IMG/VR virus record: IMGVR_UViG_3300027969_000043
Coordinates: 32,001-96,000 of that record
DNA length: 64,000 bases
DNA from: a virus
Direction: 5' to 3' (one strand)
Below are positions 4,877 to 39,407 of the stretch, one piece after another. Within the stretch, counting starts at the first letter, position 1; each line of letters starts with the position of its first letter. The position numbers and the translations under genes are program-made. The notes beneath the pieces were generated by a model that searched no databases, was not told the origin of the DNA, and saw only the letters and a list, made by a program, of their open reading frames with translations.

Positions 4877-4884
4877 ATAAATAT
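4877..4884 (-). promoter_or_regulatory. Putative phage late-promoter motif ATATTTAT upstream of the sheath gene
   Basis: The same 8-mer recurs, correctly oriented, in about 10 intergenic gaps ahead of mostly structural genes. A second copy is at 4916-4923. Confidence 0.55.
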
Positions 4885-12367: not shown

Positions 12368-15307
12368 TTACATTATTTGAACCCAACCAAATGATTTATA
12401 TAAAAAATAACCCTCATCGGCATCGGTTTGATAAACAATTAAACCAGCTGTTGCAGTTATTGCCAATCTTTGTGCTTCAGTCATTCTTGGACCTAAAAAC
12501 CCTTTGGTTGTTGAAGAAATTTCAAACAAGGCTGAAGCAGAAGGTGTTGCTGTTCCAATACCCACACTACCACCACTTAGTACAAGATTATTTGCTGACG
12601 TAGATGAACTAAAATTTAATGTCCTTCCACTTAAATCAACTATCCTATTACTATTTAAAACACCATTACCCGTATACAACGTGTTAGGTAAATTTTGATA
12701 TGTTGTTGCTGATACCGTATTTGCTGTTAAACCACTAATAAATGATGTTGCACCACTTACAGTACCACCACTTAATGGTAAAAATGCCCCACTTACAGAT
12801 GTTGAGCTACCAGTATATGCAGACAGGCTTATTGTAAATGCAGAATACTGTCCTGTTCTATTCTGTGTTAGTGTTATTGTATTTGACGATAATGTAAACC
12901 CTGTGACAAAAGTGTCGGCAGTTACAGGTAAATTTTGATATGTAGTTGCAGATATTGTACTTGCTGTTAAACCAGCTAAAAGTGTATTACCAGTTATAGT
13001 TAATGTATTTGCTGTTAAACCAGCTAAAAGTGTATTACCAGTTATAGTTAATGTATTTGCTGTTAAACCAGCTAATCTAGTATTTCCAGTTACAGTTAAC
13101 GTATCAGCAGTTACAGCGGCTAATCTAGTACTGCCAGTTACATTTAATGTATTTGCGGTTATAGCAGCTAATCTAGTACTGCCAGTTACGGTTAATGTAT
13201 TTGCAGTTATATTACTTAAATTTGTATTACCAGTTACATTTAATGTATTTGCTGTTAAACCACCAGTAAATACCGTATTACCTGTTACCGTACCACCACT
13301 TAATGGAAGATAAGCACCTGATGCAGATGAACTACCTGTATACGCCGATAAACTAATTGTAAACGCTGAGTATTGGTCGGCTCTATTTTGTGTAAGTGTT
13401 ATTGTATTTGACGATAATGTAAACCCTGTGACAAAAGTGTCGGCAGTTACAGGTAAATTTTGATATGTAGTTGCAGATATTGTATTTGCCGTTAGCCCAC
13501 TTAAGAAATTTGTTGCACCACTAACTGTACCACCAGTAAATGTAGTACTAGAAGTAATACCACTAACATTAAATGTACCGCCTGTGTTATTTGTAAATAT
13601 AAGTGTACTAGCAGCAGCGCTATATGTACCACCAGTTACAAATACATCTTTAGGTAAATTTTCATACGTTGTTGCTGATATTGTATTTGCTGTTAACCCG
13701 CTTTGGAATACTGTTGGACCACTTACTGTTCCACCAGTAAAAGTAACCGCATTAGAAATAACTTGCGTACTTAGTTTACCTGTACTATCAGCAACAACCA
13801 TTCTTGTAGTACTACCTGATAGATTACCAAATATTATATCACCTGTTTTATTTTCAAATGCAATATGTGTTGTACCCGTTAGTGCAGAAAGAGTTGGATT
13901 ATAATATATACCCCTGACTTTAGTACCTGTTTGTCCTGTAATATTAATTACTGGGTCTATTAGTAATGTTGCTGCTTCAAAGTTAATATCATTAGGGGTT
14001 TGCCACCCATAATTAATGTCAACTATAGATGAATTAGTTTGATTCCATTCTCTAGTTTGCCCATAACTAAATCTTGATATAAATGCCCATTTATCTTTAG
14101 CACCACCTTGTTCATCTTCCATGAAATATGTAGATGCACCATTTATCTTTCTTCTCCATATACCTACATATCCACTTGGGATACTTGTAGATGTGGTATC
14201 TATTTGAAAATAATTATTTATATATAAATTTGTGTCAACATATAATTCATTAGTAAATCTACCATTCCCAAATACATCTAATTTATAAGTAGGTGTATCT
14301 GTTCCAATACCTATTTTACTATCGTTACTTAATACTAATAGATTAGTATTCCATGTACTTGCTGAACTACTTGTTGTTTCTAATATCAATTTAGCACCTG
14401 TAGTGGTTAATCCACTAGGATTTGTAGAAAGTACACGAGCCCCAGGCGTATACGCCACATTTACATTTGAATGACCAAATTCTAATACATTTCTATTTAG
14501 AGGTGCGCTACCTTTATCCCATAATCTTAACGCAACATTTTCAAATGTGCTAGCTCCGCCTATGATTGATACTCCTGGACCTGCACCAATACCATAATCA
14601 ACTTCTAATTTAGCTGTTGGCGTTGTTGTCCCTATACCGACATTACCACCACTCATAACAAGCGTGTCAGGATTTGTTACTGAACTAAAATTTAATGTTT
14701 TTCCACTTAAATCAACTATTCTATTACCACTTAAAACACCATTACCCGTATACAACGTGTTAGGTAAATTTTGATATGTTGTTGCCGATATTGTATTTGC
14801 AGTTAATCCACTAGTAAATACTGTTGCACCATTAACAGTACCACCTGTAAATTGAGCACTAGCGATTATTCCCGTTAATTTAGAGCCATCCCCATAAAAC
14901 GTATCACCACTTATTGTTGTTGCTGATATCGTACTAGCTGTCAAACCACTTTGGAATATTGTATTACCAGTAACAGTACCACCACTTAACGGTAAATAGT
15001 TACCAGACGCTGTTGATGTTGAACCTGTTGTAAAACCTGTAACTTGAAATGTACCGCCTGTTGAATTAACAAATGTTGCAGTACCTGTAGTATTATTATA
15101 TGTACCACCAGTCACATACACATTTAATGATGAACCAGTAAGTCCTGATAATGTTATAGTAAAAGCTGAATATTGGTCAATTCTATTTTGTGTTAGGGTA
15201 ATATTGTTTGATGACAAGGTAAACCCAGTCACAAAGGTATCATCAAGCACCAACGGCTCAATTATAAATGTTTCATTAATATCCCCAAAGTTATTTATAC
15301 AGCTCAT
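12368..15307 (-). CDS. Long tail fibre protein, 979 aa, built from repeated S/T/G modules
   Basis: Contains VTGGTY knobs, GLTANTISATTY repeats, 16-aa tandem repeats (GLTANTLTITGNTLLA) and VGIGTTTP repeats. The C-terminus is STTKGFLGPRMTEAQRLAITATAGLIVYQTD. Confidence 0.8.
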   Translation of the reverse strand: MSCINNFGDINETFIIEPLVLDDTFVTGFTLSSNNITLTQNRIDQYSAFTITLSGLTGSSLNVYVTGGTYNNTTGTATFVNSTGGTFQVTGFTTGSTSTASGNYLPLSGGTVTGNTIFQSGLTASTISATTISGDTFYGDGSKLTGIIASAQFTGGTVNGATVFTSGLTANTISATTYQNLPNTLYTGNGVLSGNRIVDLSGKTLNFSSVTNPDTLVMSGGNVGIGTTTPTAKLEVDYGIGAGPGVSIIGGASTFENVALRLWDKGSAPLNRNVLEFGHSNVNVAYTPGARVLSTNPSGLTTTGAKLILETTSSSASTWNTNLLVLSNDSKIGIGTDTPTYKLDVFGNGRFTNELYVDTNLYINNYFQIDTTSTSIPSGYVGIWRRKINGASTYFMEDEQGGAKDKWAFISRFSYGQTREWNQTNSSIVDINYGWQTPNDINFEAATLLIDPVINITGQTGTKVRGIYYNPTLSALTGTTHIAFENKTGDIIFGNLSGSTTRMVVADSTGKLSTQVISNAVTFTGGTVSGPTVFQSGLTANTISATTYENLPKDVFVTGGTYSAAASTLIFTNNTGGTFNVSGITSSTTFTGGTVSGATNFLSGLTANTISATTYQNLPVTADTFVTGFTLSSNTITLTQNRADQYSAFTISLSAYTGSSSASGAYLPLSGGTVTGNTVFTGGLTANTLNVTGNTNLSNITANTLTVTGSTRLAAITANTLNVTGSTRLAAVTADTLTVTGNTRLAGLTANTLTITGNTLLAGLTANTLTITGNTLLAGLTASTISATTYQNLPVTADTFVTGFTLSSNTITLTQNRTGQYSAFTISLSAYTGSSTSVSGAFLPLSGGTVSGATSFISGLTANTVSATTYQNLPNTLYTGNGVLNSNRIVDLSGRTLNFSSSTSANNLVLSGGSVGIGTATPSASALFEISSTTKGFLGPRMTEAQRLAITATAGLIVYQTDADEGYFLYKSFGWVQIM
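12870..13484. repeat. Exact 90-bp direct repeat (12870-12959 and 13395-13484) flanking a 48-bp tandem array
   Basis: agtgttattgtatttgacgataatgtaaaccctgtgacaaaagtgtcggcagttacaggtaaattttgatatgtagttgcagatattgta occurs twice. Confidence 0.9.
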
Positions 15308-16356
15308 ATTGTATTACCGATTAATTGAAATTTACCTGTTGCTAAATTTGATTTATATACTCTTATACTAACAGTGCTATTGGCACTTATTGCTATTGGT
15401 GACGTTAATGTCAATCCATCAAACACACCAACACCATTAACTGATATTACAATCCTGCTAATATCCTCAACATTTATTAGTTGGTTAAAACTAATAGCAT
15501 ATTGCGCATTAAATGAAAACCTAGGTTCAGACCTTGGTTTAAATACAAACGTATACGTCGCGGTATTCCCCTTTACAATAGGGTCAAATATAACATTATG
15601 AAATGTTTTATTTTCATCCAACTCAATTAGTGTATACACCCTATTAATAGTTGGGATAACCTCAAAATCATTTTCGTCTAAAATATATCCAAGTAATGTC
15701 ATATCAAATAATTGAACATAAAATCTTGCATTTTCAAAATCATCAATATCACTCTCGTCACTAATACCCTCTAAATGAACGGGCATTGGATGCCCTTTAA
15801 CATTAATGTATGCTTGTCTAGATTGAAATGTTCTTTGAACCAACGAATTTAATTTATTTAAATCCTTCATTCTATTTGTAAAAATCCTAATCTCGTAACT
15901 AATATCAACAGATGTCGGTTGCGGTACCTTATATACATCAACACCCTTTCTAGCTCCATCCCAAGTTGGAACTTTCATGTATGTGTAGGTTCTATTTCCT
16001 GGAATATTGTAATTACCTGCTTGGTTTTGACCTACTTGAGCATCTGGTTTTCTAACAATTGTAATAAAAGGTAATTGTATATCGTTATACTTATCACTAA
16101 ATTGCCATGTTTTTGTAAATTCAGACCATCTTTGTATTGTTAAAAATAATACAGGCACCTTTCCATCATCAACAGTAATACCTAATTCATTTTTAACAAA
16201 ATCAACAAATGTTTCATCCATATCTTCTTCAGAAACACCTCTTGGTAAAAAAGTACCGTGGTCTGCAATATCGTCAAGAATTTCTTGTCTTCTTTCTGGG
16301 CCAATCTTACCTGGATTAATATTTATGTTATTTCTAAAGCCTTTTGGAACTGCCAT
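15304..16356 (-). CDS. Tail terminator / sheath stabiliser (T4 gp15-like)
   Basis: Motif pattern VPVLFLTIQRW...QLPFITIVR...PQPTSVDISYEIRIFTNRMKDLNKL; adjacent to the neck gene. Confidence 0.6.
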   Translation of the reverse strand: MAVPKGFRNNININPGKIGPERRQEILDDIADHGTFLPRGVSEEDMDETFVDFVKNELGITVDDGKVPVLFLTIQRWSEFTKTWQFSDKYNDIQLPFITIVRKPDAQVGQNQAGNYNIPGNRTYTYMKVPTWDGARKGVDVYKVPQPTSVDISYEIRIFTNRMKDLNKLNSLVQRTFQSRQAYINVKGHPMPVHLEGISDESDIDDFENARFYVQLFDMTLLGYILDENDFEVIPTINRVYTLIELDENKTFHNVIFDPIVKGNTATYTFVFKPRSEPRFSFNAQYAISFNQLINVEDISRIVISVNGVGVFDGLTLTSPIAISANSTVSIRVYKSNLATGKFQLIGNTI

Positions 16357-25399: not shown

Positions 25400-28036
25400 T
25401 TATGGGCAAACAACAACGCTGCTACCCTTAATTGTAACATTAATTGATGAAACCAATCCTTTTGAATCTTTAATAGTACATACATACGTTCCAGCTTTTA
25501 ACCCTGTATAGCTTGTTGTTGTTGTAAATGCTGAAGTACCAACTTTATACGTATAAGGCGCTGTTCCACCAGAACCACTTAAAGTTATTGTCCCATCATT
25601 TCTAGTTTTACATGTTGTGTTTGTTGATGATACCAATACAACATTTGGTGTTGCTGAATATTTGTATAATCCAATATCCATCGTACTAGTTAAAGGTGCA
25701 CCAGCAAAATCTTTATTAATTCCACTAATCAATGAACCATTACCAATACCATAACTCCCAGGCACCAAAGTAAAATCCCAATTTTCAGGATTTGGTGACG
25801 TTGTATTTTTAAATATTTGTTGTGAACCAGTATAAAGCACTTCTCCTGAATTTAAACTTGCGCCATCTCCGAGTCTAGAAACATTATTAAAACTTGTTCC
25901 TTGTCCTGTAGGGAATGTATGTGAAAACCCACCATTCACATAATAGATATTGTTTTTTCTTTTTATTCTTGTTCCATTAGAATTTGTGACTCTACTATCA
26001 GGATAAATTAATTGTAGTCCAGTCGTACCCCAAATAATATTATTTCTCATGTCGATAAGTGTATCGTAATCATTACCATAACATGCTGGACCTGAAAAGA
26101 ACGCAAACAATCTATCATTATCTGCATTGTTATCAAAACCACCATAGTAACCACTTGACGATGGATTGTTTGGTTGACTCCACCTAATACCCTTGGTAGA
26201 TAATGGCGGGAAAGCCAAAAATTCTACATCAACTCCTGTTCTTTGCGGCGCTTTGTCTAGTGTTATTGAATTTACACCTAAAGATGTTACTGTTGCATAA
26301 TCTCTATCCCCACCAGCAAAATATGGTGGGACCGCTTTTTCAGGTCCGTACACTGTTGACCCCACTTGAATACCATCCATTCTTGATAAGGATGTTATTT
26401 GGTTTGAACCTGATGTAAAGGTACCTGTCGGGTCAATATTTCCAGTTGTTAAAAAATTCGCACCCCAAAACCACCATTTAAAATCTTGGCCATCACCATA
26501 CACATCACCACCAAATCCATTACCTGAAAATCTACTTTTGTCGTTTTCTACAACTATATTATTCCAAATTCTTATATTATATTGCGCTGCGGCAAAAACA
26601 TCACCACAAGGTAAATGTAAACTAATAACATCCAACGAATTTATTATTAAGTTAAATGCAATTGTATCGTTATTCATACCTGAAGTAATATCATCATTGT
26701 CTATGCTTCCTGCTTCAATAAAACTACTACAGTCGATTACTTTATTATATACTATTTTTGAATTTTGTAAATTAAACACGTCTAAAGTTATACCACCCAT
26801 TCCTTGTGTTGATGAATTTCTACCTGATTTGGCCCAAGCACCTTTAAAATAATTATAACTAATTTCCAGATTTTTACCATTTAAAGCTTCTATTGCGCCA
26901 GCTAATACATCATTAATCCCAAACGTATCAACCGTACTTTTAAAGTTGGTGAATACATTTTTAGTAATCTTACTATTAAAAGCACTTACTGAACCAATAC
27001 CGAATGACATATTACTAAAATAACAGTTTTGAACTGTAAAATTAAATACACTACCTTTTCTATCACCATAATCTCTGTTAGTGCCCCAAATTGTATCGGT
27101 ACCATTAACTTTAGTGTCTTGGTATTCACCCATTAACATTCCACCGTAACTATACGCAGGATTTTGTTTATCGGCAACAGGAAAACGGGTATCATTAAAT
27201 TGTAACCCATCTATTATTATATTGCTAACACCACCAAATTGTGCAACCCAGTGAGTGGGACCATCTTTATATGGGGATTCAGCCGTTGGAAAAACAAAAT
27301 TAGGTAATGGCAAAGACTTGTCACCATAACTTGAAAACACAATCGGTTTTTCAGGTGTTCCACTAGGTGCGGTAAAATCGTCATACGGCCTATCAATATA
27401 TGAAAAACTCACAAAATTAAAATAACCAAGGGTACCATCATATCCGTTTGCAAACATGTCACCTCTTTTAAACAGTATTGAATCACCAGGCAAGAAAGTA
27501 ACATTTGGACTTGATGTCATATTTTGAAGAGCAATCAACGTTTTTTTAGGTGTACTTGGTGATAAACCATCATTATCATCGTTACCTGAAGTACTAAAAT
27601 AGTATTTTTTATTTGGGCCAGCAGCAAGTGTTGTAAATGTAAGTTCATTACCATACGAAGTATCAACAGCATTTATAGCAAACGCTCTGATATAATAAGT
27701 TGTTGATGGTAATAATGGCATAATTCCACCACCACCATCTGGATAATTCGGTGGTATAACGGCAACAAAATGATTAACATAAGGACCAGTACCTGTAGAA
27801 GGATAACCTAGTCTATAGTATTTAACATAAGGGCTTAATTTTGGATTTGGAGAAGTACTCCAAACAACACCTCTTTTTGTTACTGGAGAACCCCCATCAC
27901 TTGTTACATTACCACCACTTTCTGCTCTAAGTGCCTCAATACGACTTATCGCATTAGTTGTAACCGTTGGCGCTGTTTGACTAAAACCAAAAATCGTTAA
28001 TAAACTTAACGTTAATACTAGTAATACTTTTTTCAT
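25400..28036 (-). CDS. Secreted protein: signal peptide, FN3-like domain, pectin-lyase-like beta-helix, SprB repeat
   Basis: Signal peptide MKKVLLVLTLSLLTIFGFS|Q. FN3-like SGGNVTSDGGSPVTKRGVVWSTSPNP...TTYYIRAFAINAVDTSYGNELTFTT. Beta-helix start YYFSTSGNDDNDGLSPSTPKKTL...PGDSILFKRGD. SprB-like TCKTRNDGTITLSGSGGTAPYTY...GLKAGTYVCTIKDSKG. Confidence 0.8.
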   Translation of the reverse strand: MKKVLLVLTLSLLTIFGFSQTAPTVTTNAISRIEALRAESGGNVTSDGGSPVTKRGVVWSTSPNPKLSPYVKYYRLGYPSTGTGPYVNHFVAVIPPNYPDGGGGIMPLLPSTTYYIRAFAINAVDTSYGNELTFTTLAAGPNKKYYFSTSGNDDNDGLSPSTPKKTLIALQNMTSSPNVTFLPGDSILFKRGDMFANGYDGTLGYFNFVSFSYIDRPYDDFTAPSGTPEKPIVFSSYGDKSLPLPNFVFPTAESPYKDGPTHWVAQFGGVSNIIIDGLQFNDTRFPVADKQNPAYSYGGMLMGEYQDTKVNGTDTIWGTNRDYGDRKGSVFNFTVQNCYFSNMSFGIGSVSAFNSKITKNVFTNFKSTVDTFGINDVLAGAIEALNGKNLEISYNYFKGAWAKSGRNSSTQGMGGITLDVFNLQNSKIVYNKVIDCSSFIEAGSIDNDDITSGMNNDTIAFNLIINSLDVISLHLPCGDVFAAAQYNIRIWNNIVVENDKSRFSGNGFGGDVYGDGQDFKWWFWGANFLTTGNIDPTGTFTSGSNQITSLSRMDGIQVGSTVYGPEKAVPPYFAGGDRDYATVTSLGVNSITLDKAPQRTGVDVEFLAFPPLSTKGIRWSQPNNPSSSGYYGGFDNNADNDRLFAFFSGPACYGNDYDTLIDMRNNIIWGTTGLQLIYPDSRVTNSNGTRIKRKNNIYYVNGGFSHTFPTGQGTSFNNVSRLGDGASLNSGEVLYTGSQQIFKNTTSPNPENWDFTLVPGSYGIGNGSLISGINKDFAGAPLTSTMDIGLYKYSATPNVVLVSSTNTTCKTRNDGTITLSGSGGTAPYTYKVGTSAFTTTTSYTGLKAGTYVCTIKDSKGLVSSINVTIKGSSVVVCP

Positions 28037-28061: not shown

Positions 28062-29036
28062 TTAACAATTAGTTACATCTATAGTCCATCCACTTGAAAC
28101 CAGACTTGTATATGCGCTATATCCTAATGTATTGGCAGATAAACAACCATTACCAGTTTGATTAAATAATGTTATTGTATTTGGATTTTGCCAATACGTA
28201 GTTGCACTCAATTTAATTAATGTGTTAGTTATACCACTATTAGGCAACGAATTATCGTTCAAATATATATACGAAATAAAATTAGGGAATGGATTACCTA
28301 ACGACCATGGATTAAATGTTGATATTGAATTATAACTTAAATCTAACACCTGCAATCTGCTAGGTAATGGTTGATACGGTGTAAAATTAGTTATTGAATT
28401 ATAGCTTAAATTTAATGTTTGAATACTTGGTATTGGTAATGATGGGTCATAATTTGTGATTAAATTATTATTCAAATAAAGATTTGAAATACCCAAAGGA
28501 AAAGGAACTGTTGGGGTGAACCCTGTCAATAAATTATTATTTAAATATAAATCAGTCAGCCCTTGTGGTAAACTAGTCGGTGTAAATGCTGTTACACTAT
28601 TATACGATAAATCCAACGTTTGAACCGAACTAGGTAATGTTGAAATTCTACTATCAAAGTTATTGATTAAGTTACCACTTAAATTTAAATACGTTAAACC
28701 ACTTAAATTCTCTAAACCTATTATATCCCTTAATCTATTATTACCATACCCTGAAGATATGTCCAAATTGTTAATTAATATTGGGTTGTTAATAGCTGTT
28801 GATGCGGTATAGTTACCGTTAATTGAATATGTGTGTGATGGTGTATAGTTATCAGAACTTAAATATGTATTTTGAGAGCCATCACCCCAATTTACTGTCA
28901 TTGTGAAATTAGAGGAGCCCTGAACAAAAAAGTTTAACGAATTACCTGTTGAATTAAAAACAAATTTTAATTGTCCTTCCGTAGATGCAGATGTTTTATA
29001 TGATGAGGCTGTTAAACCAATATAAAATAATTTCAT
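28062..29036 (-). CDS. PKD-like domain plus leucine-rich repeat protein
   Basis: PKD-like TVNWGDGS...SHTY; repeated LxxLDLSYNxIT / LxxLYLNNNLLT. Confidence 0.85.
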   Translation of the reverse strand: MKLFYIGLTASSYKTSASTEGQLKFVFNSTGNSLNFFVQGSSNFTMTVNWGDGSQNTYLSSDNYTPSHTYSINGNYTASTAINNPILINNLDISSGYGNNRLRDIIGLENLSGLTYLNLSGNLINNFDSRISTLPSSVQTLDLSYNSVTAFTPTSLPQGLTDLYLNNNLLTGFTPTVPFPLGISNLYLNNNLITNYDPSLPIPSIQTLNLSYNSITNFTPYQPLPSRLQVLDLSYNSISTFNPWSLGNPFPNFISYIYLNDNSLPNSGITNTLIKLSATTYWQNPNTITLFNQTGNGCLSANTLGYSAYTSLVSSGWTIDVTNC

Positions 29037-35460: not shown

Positions 35461-35484
35461 ATTTGTTGATTAGATACTATATTA

Positions 35485-35548
35485 ATAAAAAATACCCAAA
35501 TATAAATATTCACCAAAATTGTTTTGACAAATAAAATATTTGGGTATT
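35485..35548 (-). terminator. Long hairpin with U tract after the secreted beta-helix gene, overlapping an ATATTTAT motif (35502-35509)
   Basis: 13-bp inverted repeat aatacccaaatat (35491-35503) / atatttgggtatt (35536-35548) with an inner caaaa/ttttg stem. Confidence 0.55.
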
Positions 35549-35567
35549 CTTATAATAAACTAAAACA

Positions 35568-38500
35568 CTATTGTTTTACAAATAATATTGATTGATTATA
35601 TGTAATAGCAACATAACTACCTGAAGTTAAGTTTCTCACACTAACCCAATCACCACCAGACGAATAACTAGAAGTTTTAACTGTAACCCCTAATATATTT
35701 TTAATCACCATAGTTCCAGACGTGTTAGAATTTATATATATTGACCTTCTATCTGAATTATAAAAAAACCTTCTAATATTAACTGAAGAACAAGACCTAC
35801 TTAAACTATCCGTTGACGGAAGACCAATGCAACCTATAGGTTCACTAGTATATGTTCTAGATTGTAAACCATTAATACATGTACTCCATTGACTATAAGT
35901 AAATACACATGGTGTTGGAGAAACACATGCTCTTTGAACACTATCCGCAGGAGGAACCCCTGTACAACCTACTGGTGTGGATGTATATGTTCTTGTTTGA
36001 GTTCCATTAGCACATGTTGTCCAAATTCCATATGTAAAATTACAAGGTACTATTGGTGATGTACAACTTCTTTGAATACTATCAGTTGGCGGAAATCCCA
36101 CACATCCAGTTGGAGATGTTACATATGGTCTTGTTTGAACCCCATTATTACACGTTGTCCAAGTTCCGTATGTAAAAATACAAGGTGTTGGAGCAACTGA
36201 ATTATACTGATATATTCCTATTGAAGGTGTTGCACCAACAATATTTCCTTCAAAATCTCTATTAAGACCTACATTTGTACCATTATTTATGGCATAAGAC
36301 GTATCACTAGCAATGTGCATATCCCAATTTTGTGGGTATATGCTAGAACTATCAACAATTAATTTACCATTGATAATTCTTTCGCCTATCGCTAATGTGG
36401 TATTAGGCCCTAAAGACGTAGGTGTAAATGAACCAACCGCTCCCTGATAACCACTAACTAAGTGATAGATATTATTTCTATAAAACGCTTTAGGTCTTTC
36501 AGATTGTGTGTATTTAGCATAAAACCCATTATTAATCCAAAATACATTATTACGAATATCAAATACAGTATCTGCTGCTTGAACACTATGGTCACCTGAC
36601 GCTATCGGCCTCCAAGCGTTTTGGAAGTTTTCTGATGATGGATAACGAGTTGATTTATTAATAGGGTATGGTGGCCAATAAATGAATCCTGTGTTTGCAT
36701 ATGTTTGACCATCACCCATAGCATCACCACCAGCATTGTTACCACTAAAACGTGACATAGAACCTTCTACAAAAAAGTTATTCCAAAAATGTAAATTTTT
36801 AACCTGTGTTGCATATGTTCCTGTAGTATTAACATACGCAATGTTGCTACAATTGATAAATTTATTATAGCAAATTGTATCGTCATCTGGGCCTTGTATA
36901 CCGCCTGGTAAATTTGTGCCAAACTCCATACCACCGCTACAATCAATGAATGTATTATAGGCAATGAATGAACTATCAAAATTATTAATAGTTTCAACAG
37001 CTCCACCTAATAAACCTGAACTAGATGAATTAAAAGGATTGGCATAAGCCCACGAACCTGTAATTCTATTATTTGTTATTCTATATTTACTTCCCGATAA
37101 TAACATTGGGTCAGCACCTATATCAGCTTGACTTGCAGTATCTGTTATCCAACCTGTAGATTTAAAATTACTAAATGTATTATTTTCAATCTTAAAATCT
37201 CTAACAAAGGCAACAATACCATATGCTGTATTACTAAAGTTACAGTTTTTTACCGTGATGTTACTACATTTACAACCATCACTTCCACTACAGTATCCAC
37301 TATCCCCAAACCAAAGTCCTAGCGTTGTAAAAGCACCCGAACGTTTGTCATTGACAGGGAATCTTGTATCATTAAACTGTATACCGTCTATCACAATGTA
37401 ACTTACATTAGCAAACGCCAATACACCTTTTTCGTTTGACCTAACTGAACTTGGATAAGGATATAGTAAGTTTGGGCTTTCTAAATTAATATCACCATAA
37501 TATGTGAATACAATTGGATTAGTAGCAGTACCTGAAGGGAAGCTTAATCCTTCATATCCACCACCATACCATTTTACAGAAGCTACTGTGCTGAACTCGG
37601 TACCATTAGCAAATATTTCACCTCTTTTAAAAGCAAATGTATCACCAGCAGTTGCAATACTACTTAAAGTATTTAATTTTGCTAGTGTTTTCCAAGGGGT
37701 CAATGGATTCTGTGCTTGTGTAACACTATACGAATCATTACCAATTGAACTAAAATAAAATTTTCTACCTCTTGTTGTTGGGGATGCACATGTTCTTGTT
37801 AAACTGTCTGCTGGAGGAACTCCCGTACAATTAGTTGGGGAACTCGTAAACGGTCTTGTTTGTATTCCATTACTACATGTTGTCCAAGTTCCGTATGTGA
37901 AAGTGCACGGTACTATCGGTGTTGTACAACTTCTTTGAATACTATCAGTTGGTGGAACCCCAATACAACCTGTCGGTGTAGGTGTATATGGTCTTGTTTG
38001 TGTTCCGTTAGAACATGTTGTCCAACTACCATATGTAAAAGTACATGGTGTTGGAGTAACCGAACCACCGTATTGGTATATACCCATCGAAGGTATAGCA
38101 CCAACACTATTACCAACAAAATCGCTTGTAAGACCTACATTAACTCCAGAATTTATGGCTGGTGATGTACTTGTTAATGTATAATCCCAATTTAAAGGGT
38201 TAGAGTTTGTTGTATTTGTCCAAATAATTCCAGATGTGGAAATCTCAGTACCGTCTAATGTGAAATTAGTAACACTACCATTAGATAATTTATATATGTT
38301 GTTAGTGTGACTTAAGTTAGCACCATTTAACTGTCCATTTCTTGTTAATGATAAACCATTAGATACCTGAATTATATTATTTTTAAGGATTATAATCCCA
38401 GCTGTAGCCTCTGATGTTGACATAGAAAACATAATACCGCTACTACCCCCTGGATTTGTATTAGGAACGGTTTGTAACATTACATTATTATAAAATTGTA

Positions 38501-39407
38501 AGTTTCTTACCGCAGTTTTATACTGTCCACTATTACTAATATAAACTACTGTGTTGTTATTAATAATCTTGTTGTAATATATTTTATTATTTTGAATTAA
38601 ATTATTAGCAACACCATCATTATTGCTACCAAATTCAAAAATACCATTACAGTCATAAAATGTATTGTAAGCAATCACGTTATTTTCAATAACAGAACCC
38701 TCTTCAAAAAATTCTACACCACCACCATCAAATGTATAATCATAACTAGCGGCATAACAATCGTGAAAGTAGTTGTTAGTAACAATATTATTTGAACTAG
38801 ATAGTTGAACAGGCACCCCACCATAATCGTCATCTGGATTAACAGATGTTGGTGTGTTTCTAATCATCCTTAAATTTCCAATATCACAAGAATCCACGGT
38901 GTTATTATTATTGCCTGGTGGAAAATACACGCCATAACCAGTTCTGTCCATCGTACACTTCCTAATAACTATTCCTGTACATCCTTGATACGTAGCAAAT
39001 ACATTTTGTATCTTAGCTTGAATATATCTATCAGTAGCTGATATTGTTGTATCGCTAATCTTCCAACCATAGAAAGTTAGGTTTGTACAACCATTCAATG
39101 TAATTAAAACACTTACTGTAGAGTTTGTCCCCCAGAATAATGGGTCGGCTCCTGTTCCATACACACCAAAATAAATGTTAGATTTATTTGATAATGTTAA
39201 TGTTCCCGAGAATTTAGAATCTTTTGCAAACAATACAGAATCACCATTAGCAACATTGCTTTGTACTTTAGATAATGTTTGCCAAGGCGTTAATGGATTT
39301 TGCGCTTGTGTTGTTGTGTAACTATCACTACCCGCTGAACTAACGTAAAATTTTCTAGCGCTAGCAAATAATGGAATAAATAAAAGAATTGTTAAAAACT
39401 TTTTCAT
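35568..39407 (-). CDS. Secreted protein: signal peptide, 2 pectin-lyase-like beta-helices, 5 TSP1-like repeats, T9SS C-terminal sorting-like domain
   Basis: Signal peptide MKKFLTILLFIPLFASA|R. Two RKFYxSSxGxDS...NPLTPWxTL beta-helix domains. CxFTYGxWTTCxNGxQTR repeats. C-terminus IYINSNTSGTMVIKNILGVTVKT...VSVRNLTSGSYVAITYNQSILFVKQ. Confidence 0.8.
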   Translation of the reverse strand: MKKFLTILLFIPLFASARKFYVSSAGSDSYTTTQAQNPLTPWQTLSKVQSNVANGDSVLFAKDSKFSGTLTLSNKSNIYFGVYGTGADPLFWGTNSTVSVLITLNGCTNLTFYGWKISDTTISATDRYIQAKIQNVFATYQGCTGIVIRKCTMDRTGYGVYFPPGNNNNTVDSCDIGNLRMIRNTPTSVNPDDDYGGVPVQLSSSNNIVTNNYFHDCYAASYDYTFDGGGVEFFEEGSVIENNVIAYNTFYDCNGIFEFGSNNDGVANNLIQNNKIYYNKIINNNTVVYISNSGQYKTAVRNLQFYNNVMLQTVPNTNPGGSSGIMFSMSTSEATAGIIILKNNIIQVSNGLSLTRNGQLNGANLSHTNNIYKLSNGSVTNFTLDGTEISTSGIIWTNTTNSNPLNWDYTLTSTSPAINSGVNVGLTSDFVGNSVGAIPSMGIYQYGGSVTPTPCTFTYGSWTTCSNGTQTRPYTPTPTGCIGVPPTDSIQRSCTTPIVPCTFTYGTWTTCSNGIQTRPFTSSPTNCTGVPPADSLTRTCASPTTRGRKFYFSSIGNDSYSVTQAQNPLTPWKTLAKLNTLSSIATAGDTFAFKRGEIFANGTEFSTVASVKWYGGGYEGLSFPSGTATNPIVFTYYGDINLESPNLLYPYPSSVRSNEKGVLAFANVSYIVIDGIQFNDTRFPVNDKRSGAFTTLGLWFGDSGYCSGSDGCKCSNITVKNCNFSNTAYGIVAFVRDFKIENNTFSNFKSTGWITDTASQADIGADPMLLSGSKYRITNNRITGSWAYANPFNSSSSGLLGGAVETINNFDSSFIAYNTFIDCSGGMEFGTNLPGGIQGPDDDTICYNKFINCSNIAYVNTTGTYATQVKNLHFWNNFFVEGSMSRFSGNNAGGDAMGDGQTYANTGFIYWPPYPINKSTRYPSSENFQNAWRPIASGDHSVQAADTVFDIRNNVFWINNGFYAKYTQSERPKAFYRNNIYHLVSGYQGAVGSFTPTSLGPNTTLAIGERIINGKLIVDSSSIYPQNWDMHIASDTSYAINNGTNVGLNRDFEGNIVGATPSIGIYQYNSVAPTPCIFTYGTWTTCNNGVQTRPYVTSPTGCVGFPPTDSIQRSCTSPIVPCNFTYGIWTTCANGTQTRTYTSTPVGCTGVPPADSVQRACVSPTPCVFTYSQWSTCINGLQSRTYTSEPIGCIGLPSTDSLSRSCSSVNIRRFFYNSDRRSIYINSNTSGTMVIKNILGVTVKTSSYSSGGDWVSVRNLTSGSYVAITYNQSILFVKQ

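Follow-up and report, generated by a model that had tools for sequence, protein, structure and literature searches.

A two-helix protein of a giant freshwater phage with a predicted, diverged type IX secretion sorting domain

Results

Anatomy of a candidate secretion cargo

The stretch of viral DNA analyzed here (hereafter the window) is 64,000 nucleotides long and corresponds to bases 34068-98067 of a 120,190-bp IMG/VR virus record (IMGVR_UViG_3300027969_000043). CheckV puts the completeness of the record at 34%; the 120-kb record is therefore a jumbo-phage fragment, and its source is a giant, uncultured freshwater phage of the jumbo class. Our subject is an open reading frame (ORF) on the minus strand, 35568..39407 (-), a real gene that encodes a protein of 1279 amino acids (aa) and that we refer to as the cargo gene, as its product is probably carried by the host type IX secretion system (T9SS). 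An earlier sequence-only reading of the window had made this proposal from a signal peptide, two beta-helix domains and a terminal sorting domain; these parts stand, while five cysteine-rich repeats and a paralogue at 25400..28036 had been overlooked.

The protein opens with a predicted Sec signal peptide of the signal peptidase I type (residues 1-17, 39357..39407 (-), MKKFLTILLFIPLFASA), in which a basic MKK n-region and an 11-residue hydrophobic core lead to an A-x-A motif (ASA17) ahead of the predicted cut before R18, the junction reading MKKFLTILLFIPLFASA-RKFY. The call is a rule-based reading of the N-terminus combined with conservation in relatives: an equivalent leader followed by R-K-F-Y is present in every full-length homologue, in keeping with the cleavable signal peptide originally proposed. 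Of the real genes in the 120-kb record, two have such a leader, the cargo gene and one paralogue, and it is therefore not a compositional accident.

Beta-helix unit A (residues 18-454, 38046..39356 (-)) follows, its helix beginning at mature residue 2, and is modeled by AlphaFold2 (AF2) as a right-handed beta-helix (pLDDT 82) resembling glycan lyases and hydrolases. Foldseek relates it to the GH136 lacto-N-biosidase (E 3.9e-9) and the Vibrio cholerae matrix (Vibrio polysaccharide, VPS) lyase RbmB (2.8e-7), with further structural matches to PL6, rhamnogalacturonan, alginate and chondroitin lyases and to the HK620 and Det7 tailspikes; the likeness to known enzymes lies at the level of the fold alone (E 3.9e-9 to 1e-4, identity 10-16%). 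Unit B (residues 546-1075, 36183..37772 (-)) is a paralogue of unit A (identity 29%, E 8e-40), which bears out the second of the two proposed helices, and starts with RKFYFSS, a motif found after the signal peptide throughout the family, as if it were itself a mature N-terminus. The protein thus has the look of two diverged members of the beta-helix family fused in frame; a recent tandem duplication of the helices was rejected because their identity is as low as 29%. Neither Pfam nor the PDB sequences hold a family for the beta-helices, PHROG has none for the protein, and a PDB sequence search with the whole protein returned no match.

Regular-expression mapping and alignment place 4-Cys repeats behind each helix: two of 46 aa after unit A (residues 455-545, 37773..38045 (-)) and three after unit B (residues 1076-1209, 35781..36182 (-)), making five repeats of 43-46 aa with 20 cysteines in total. 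They follow the pattern C-x-F-x-Y-x2-W-x2-C...R...C...P...S...C, whose named residues (C, F, Y, W, C, R, C, P, S and C) are invariant in 60 aligned copies from relatives, and a profile of the repeat finds no family in Pfam or the PDB. A reading as thrombospondin type 1-like repeats was not adopted, the PTN_MK_C/TSP1 matches being faint and limited to 5 of the 60 copies, at E values of at least 0.03.

The terminal domain resembles type A sorting domains

By profile and alignment, the last 70 residues of the protein (1210-1279, 35571..35780 (-)), which end in FVKQ, are homologous to the type A sorting domains of the T9SS, and we read them, in line with their fold, as a diverged C-terminal sorting domain (CTD) of that type. 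The AF2 model is a seven-strand beta-sandwich of high confidence (pLDDT 92), in agreement with the terminal domain of about 70 residues that had been delimited by eye at these positions. Among 36 relatives, 30 have C-termini that match both TIGR04183 (best 1.9e-7) and PF18962 (best 2e-6), the other recurrent families at relatives' C-termini are nearly all linked to the T9SS, and one member of the CTD subtype studied here, P0143, has a PF18962 match. An hhalign comparison of the phage-CTD profile with the canonical CTDs borne by bacterial members of the beta-helix protein family gives E 1.5e-4, and in 99 of 301 Chitinophagaceae genomes the same profile matches canonical, YPNP-containing CTDs at the ends of ORFs. 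At the level of single sequences, an ungapped BLASTP alignment over 66 residues pairs the domain with a canonical CTD on a 4.9-Mb Chitinophagaceae chromosome (30% identity, E 2e-9); FFYNS faces LYPNP and FVKQ ends both domains, so that the register first proposed, with FYNS in the place of YPNP, holds.

Structural comparison with VIA-align matches the domain to the FspA and NucA CTDs of translocon complexes (Z 7.5 and 6.9, root-mean-square deviation 2.3 Å, identity 20-23%), and the RgpB CTD is also among the matches (Z range 6.9-7.5); a CTD-profile search of PDB sequences gave no significant match. Like the Flavobacterium johnsoniae type A CTDs seen on SprA-PorV (FspA, NucA and RemZ; PDB 8GLJ, 8GLK), the domain is a C-terminal seven-strand beta-sandwich with a basic residue near its end. 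According to structural work on those complexes, conserved motifs of the CTD serve to specify its fold rather than to contact the translocon, the sole near-invariant contact being a lysine close to the C-terminus (Lauber et al., PMC10994853). All 36 copies of the phage CTD have a lysine or arginine at the last or second-last position, here K1278 in FVKQ, which fits that near-invariant lysine.

The domain also appears to behave as a modular address tag. Its profile has just 83 matches in 1.84 billion representative proteins, and the full-length ones, found in proteins of widely varying length, mostly lie at the very C-terminus. The same subtype, which turned up in phage-like contigs only, is carried there by an M43 peptidase, by PKD proteins and by an RCC1/WD40-like protein next to Tad6, and the phage-type CTD always has a 4-Cys repeat ahead of it. 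Comparison with two related loci shows that tag and cargo have separate histories: relative to L006, the helices are 89-94% identical (ratio of nonsynonymous to synonymous substitution rates, dN/dS, 0.095 for unit A and 0.069 for unit B) and the CTD just 40%, whereas relative to the 320-kb contig L009 the CTD is 76% identical (dN/dS 0.25) and the helix just 42%.

The slot between a 118-aa (+) and a 351-aa (-) gene holds the beta-helix cargo in L006-L007 and the M43 peptidase cargo in a sister phage (L032, contig XqR7lgzq). With 4-Cys repeats and one CTD subtype common to both cargos, this points to cassettes being exchanged at a fixed site.

Homologues, synteny and phage context

The protein has 103 homologues. 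An identical protein is encoded on six contigs of up to 169 kb, and L009 is syntenic with the window, with the same gene slot and core genes 92-98% identical; the fibre region including the cargo slot is variable between the two. The sequence-only reading had allowed for a host-phage chimera at this point of the record; an assembly chimera is excluded because of the synteny with L009 and was rejected on the six contigs as well, and by these comparisons the cargo gene is genuinely phage-borne.

Homologues bearing the FYYN...F-x-R/K tag reside in phage-like contigs. On one of these, a 107-kb contig with ThyA and an RNA ligase, the homologue lies on the strand opposite to its neighbours; on a 205-kb phage contig it adjoins PKD proteins, a CHU_C protein with a type B CTD, and YkuD; the 320-kb L009 is a third such contig. 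Bacterial homologues, found among housekeeping and exopolysaccharide genes and in Chitinophagaceae metagenome-assembled genomes (MAGs), combine a signal peptide, SprB repeats and a canonical CTD. Within 301 sampled Chitinophagaceae genomes we found neither the 4-Cys repeats nor a close member of the CTD subtype (best 37 bits versus 100-128 for true members). The gene family would have descended from bacterial T9SS cargo; in phages it would have gained Cys-rich linkers and a CTD subtype specific to them, with cargo and tag modules shuffled between phages.

Beyond the genes next to the cargo gene lie a family B DNA polymerase gene and a T4 gp13-like gene. The sequence-only reading had noted no lysogeny genes in the window, and no integrase was found across the 120-kb record. 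The GC content of the cargo gene is similar to that of the surrounding DNA. Searches of the GenBank phage collection with the DNA, the whole protein or its C-terminal 150 aa gave no match, and therefore no cultured relative is known.

Directly 3' of the stop codon, RNA folding predicts a terminator-like hairpin followed by a U-run (35488..35551 (-)); the fold of 35470-35570(-) has a free energy of -24.7 kcal/mol (z -4.33), equalled by none of 200 shuffles. A sigma-70 promoter scan returned matches no better than those in shuffled sequence.

Candidate hosts and PorV docking

The host is probably a member of the Bacteroidota, and within it a freshwater member of the Chitinophagaceae, judging from gene homology. 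Four of four Chitinophagaceae MAGs with bacterial homologues of the cargo protein encode SprA and PorV above the cut-off. Modeling the CTD with PorV, as had been suggested at the outset, gave for the PorV of a Chitinophagaceae MAG an ipSAE of 0.88 versus 0.02 for the best of three controls, in runs that share at least 88% of contacts and with a partner pLDDT of at least 86; 58 of 80 solved complexes reach the mark used, as do 2 of 110 mismatched pairs. The model passed these controls, a result that speaks for likeness rather than for binding, as PorV-CTD complexes have been solved.

Discussion

The anatomy and homology of the protein, its phage context and the machinery of the candidate hosts are established, and they make it likely that the gene encodes a phage-borne cargo of the host T9SS; every computational test run lends support to this original proposal. 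As for how and when the protein is exported, what it does as an enzyme and how the phage gains from it, we envisage the following path. The protein would be made while the phage infects a host of the Bacteroidota, probably one from the freshwater Chitinophagaceae, and exported by Sec, with removal of the leader after ASA17. In the periplasm it would fold, and the 20 cysteines of the five repeats could pair as disulfides. The SprA/PorV translocon would then recognize the terminal 70-aa beta-sandwich, and the protein, once across the outer membrane, would be released or held at the cell surface. There the two different beta-helix modules, to judge from their fold, might bind or cut polysaccharide of the host surface or matrix, with the possible outcome that receptor glycan is stripped from infected cells and debris or that capsule and biofilm are loosened for progeny escape. 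Lyase activity, receptor stripping and superinfection exclusion, named as roles in the sequence-only reading, are offered here as conjecture.

Several observations weigh against a T9SS cargo. Scoring the domain against the curated models, the check first suggested, gave a divided result: 30 of 36 relatives match both models, and this copy stays under both cut-offs (TIGR04183 15-16 bits versus 23, PF18962 13.6-14.4 versus 27), and a six-frame TIGR04183 scan of the 120-kb record gave no match at E<=1. The PNP motif is lost, the subtype consensus being FYYN. Structural matches of the domain to known CTDs score no higher than those to FN3 domains, the fold being therefore consistent with a CTD and not decisive, and Foldseek against the PDB returned nothing at E<=1e-3. 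In seven relatives the beta-sandwich is internal and followed by an SprB repeat, and is thus not always a terminal tag. The cargo gene sits inside a tail-fibre module and shares its strand with the fibre genes. The docking pass may reflect likeness rather than binding, because PorV-CTD complexes have already been solved, and the host is one that we infer from gene homology.

On account of the gene's position, the principal competing explanation is a virion tailspike or depolymerase, in which the protein would be assembled on the baseplate in the cytoplasm, the N-terminus would go unused as a signal, and the beta-sandwich would be an immunoglobulin-like receptor-binding or spacer domain. The same-strand neighbours are indeed tail-fibre and tailspike genes with PHROG tail matches and Peptidase_S74 chaperone domains; the beta-helix also resembles the HK620 and Det7 tailspikes, internal copies of the beta-sandwich occur in relatives, and in L009 a neighbouring member of the same family (P0111), devoid of signal peptide and CTD, looks like a virion form. 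We nevertheless regard this explanation as unlikely: the A-x-A signal peptide is kept family-wide, including in bacterial members with canonical CTDs, an N-terminal particle-binding domain is missing, since the helix runs from mature residue 2, and 20 regularly spaced cysteines suit an oxidizing compartment. In other phages, moreover, the gene stands apart from structural genes on the opposite strand, or among PKD, CHU_C and YkuD genes, and the late-type ATATTTAT motif of many structural genes is not found upstream of it. With P0111 next to the cargo slot in L009, virion-type and secreted-type versions may coexist.

Export by Sec alone, with action in the periplasm or another route to the surface, would make the terminal domain a non-functional CTD remnant or a carbohydrate-binding module. 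The sub-threshold scores and the lost PNP motif agree with such a reading, as do the internal copies of the domain and the fact that the paralogue at 25400..28036 and many other relatives have a signal peptide and no CTD. Its chances nonetheless seem small in view of the purifying selection on the CTD (dN/dS 0.25 versus L009), the basic residue kept at or next to the end of all 36 copies, the reuse of the domain at the extreme C-terminus of unrelated cargos, its end-to-end alignment with a canonical CTD and the PorV docking controls that it passed. In a third reading, the gene would be a recent capture from a host, or the product of a chimeric assembly, and would do nothing for the phage. This would account for homologues that are bacterial T9SS cargo, but it is highly improbable given the identical protein on six contigs, some as long as 169 kb, the matching syntenic position in the 320-kb relative, a GC content like that of the surroundings, a CTD subtype and Cys repeats not found in the 301 sampled Chitinophagaceae genomes, and helices under strong purifying selection.

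As a concept, T9SS-tagged genes borne by phages are already known from metagenomes, and the "undescribed system" of the sequence-only reading does not hold as such. Three variable genes with type A sorting domains have been described in Cryophage as phage-encoded T9SS cargo (Bellas et al. 2020, Nat Commun, PMC7468147). In both cases an uncultured Bacteroidota phage carries variable genes for glycan-active or binding proteins with a type A sorting domain at their end. Phage genomes that are otherwise near-identical differ strongly in these hypervariable cargo genes in both cases, and a role has been read from sequence alone. Cryophage, at 76 kb and with CTDs annotated as type A, differs from the jumbo phage examined here (a 120-kb fragment with a 320-kb relative), whose CTD is diverged, apparently phage-restricted and below cut-offs, and whose cargo fuses two helices and contains novel 4-Cys repeats. 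Contigs of crAss-BACON phages have also been noted to encode T9SS sorting-domain proteins, close to structural genes (de Jonge et al. 2019, Viruses, PMC6949934); those are gut phages of Bacteroidota with BACON-repeat cargo, described with no beta-helix and no CTD analysis, unlike the case at hand. In BFVD, too, the best structural matches include phage proteins that bear the name "Secretion system C-terminal sorting domain". A literature search found no experimentally characterized phage T9SS cargo.

Among bacterial proteins, type A T9SS cargo of the Chitinophagaceae with beta-helix, SprB repeats and Por_Secre_tail (e.g., P0067, P0096 and L018-L022) shares the signal peptide, the beta-helix family and a C-terminal sorting domain with the phage protein, at 46-49% identity for L018-L022, in which the CTD is kept, and 57-61% for contig-truncated copies. 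It differs in having SprB-repeat linkers and a YPNP...KIIK CTD, where the phage copies have 4-Cys repeats and an FYYN...F-x-R/K CTD. With the HK620 and Det7 tailspikes and with secreted RbmB the protein shares, at the level of the fold only, the right-handed beta-helix of glycan-cutting enzymes, and by analogy with phage depolymerases and RbmB it might likewise clear surface or matrix polysaccharide. The phage depolymerases known so far either belong to the virion or come free at lysis; to our knowledge none is routed via a host secretion system. What is new here is a diverged, apparently phage-restricted CTD subtype missed by curated models, its linkage to a 4-Cys repeat not described before, the shuffling of cargo and tag, and the two-helix fusion.

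Were phages to export enzymes through the T9SS, infected Bacteroidota cells would be remodeled from outside as well as inside, with effects on receptor availability, on the integrity of capsule and biofilm, and on polysaccharide turnover in lakes. The phage CTD subtype escapes the curated models, and surveys at TIGR04183 and PF18962 cut-offs therefore undercount such genes. As the tag has 80 residues and can be attached to a reporter, phage use of the T9SS is directly testable, and the swapping of tags and cargos is a natural experiment on what the translocon recognizes. More tentatively, and at somewhat less than even chances, we suggest that freshwater jumbo phages of Chitinophagaceae-like hosts own a phage-restricted T9SS tag subtype, always placed after a novel disulfide-rich repeat and pasted on changing cargos (beta-helix glycanases, an M43 peptidase, PKD and RCC1-like binders), and that while infecting they deploy a phage "secretome" via the host T9SS, keeping secreted and virion-bound forms of one depolymerase family side by side.

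Additional observations

The ATATTTAT motif sits 15-45 nt 5' of many structural-gene starts in the window (e.g., at 4877, 4916, 11172, 16915, 25388, 35502, 49079 and 52020 on the minus strand and 16988, 19122 and 52042 on the plus strand), with no copy upstream of the cargo gene. Its total of 20 is not in excess of the shuffle mean of 18, and it is the placement alone that suggests a late promoter element.

The second signal-peptide gene of the record, recognized by leader and homology, encodes a paralogue of 878 aa (25400..28036 (-)) with an extra N-terminal domain of ~120 aa, a beta-helix of the unit B type and one SprB repeat. It is 42% identical to P0087 and ends in ...KGSSVVVCP with no CTD, and together with an adjacent 324-aa gene it is absent from the syntenic L009. 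That adjacent gene, at 28062-29036 (-), encodes a leucine-rich-repeat protein that starts MKLFYIGLTASSYK. The virion-like P0111 of L009 (8400-9932 (+), 510 aa) starts MNLSSIGFTASALK, and the two starts may represent a common short N-terminal docking peptide for virion attachment.

On two other phage contigs, tagged genes have further company. The 205-kb contig (L011:6366-8992) carries P0085 next to PKD_6, a 186-aa CHU_C protein (type B), PKD_4 and a YkuD L,D-transpeptidase, so that tagged genes of the type A-like and of the type B kind both seem to be present in this phage. An 80.8-kb phage-like contig (L030:2213-4226 and 13504-15495) has an endolysin-like gene, ClpP, Prim-Pol, many small ORFs and a PAS histidine kinase with a response regulator, as well as two proteins with phage-type CTDs, one of 540 aa with PKD_6 and one of 663 aa with a clear PF18962 match.

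Family members that have no CTD show recurrent tails after the SprB repeat, of the forms ...KSRLKF(K/I)N, ...RRRRNC and ...SSV(T)C(N/P) (P0015, P0017, P0019, P0029, P0032, P0088, P0092, P0095, P0097, P0098 and P0102; P0037, P0049, P0069, P0071 and P0075). These short tails may constitute another, undescribed C-terminal signal or anchor.

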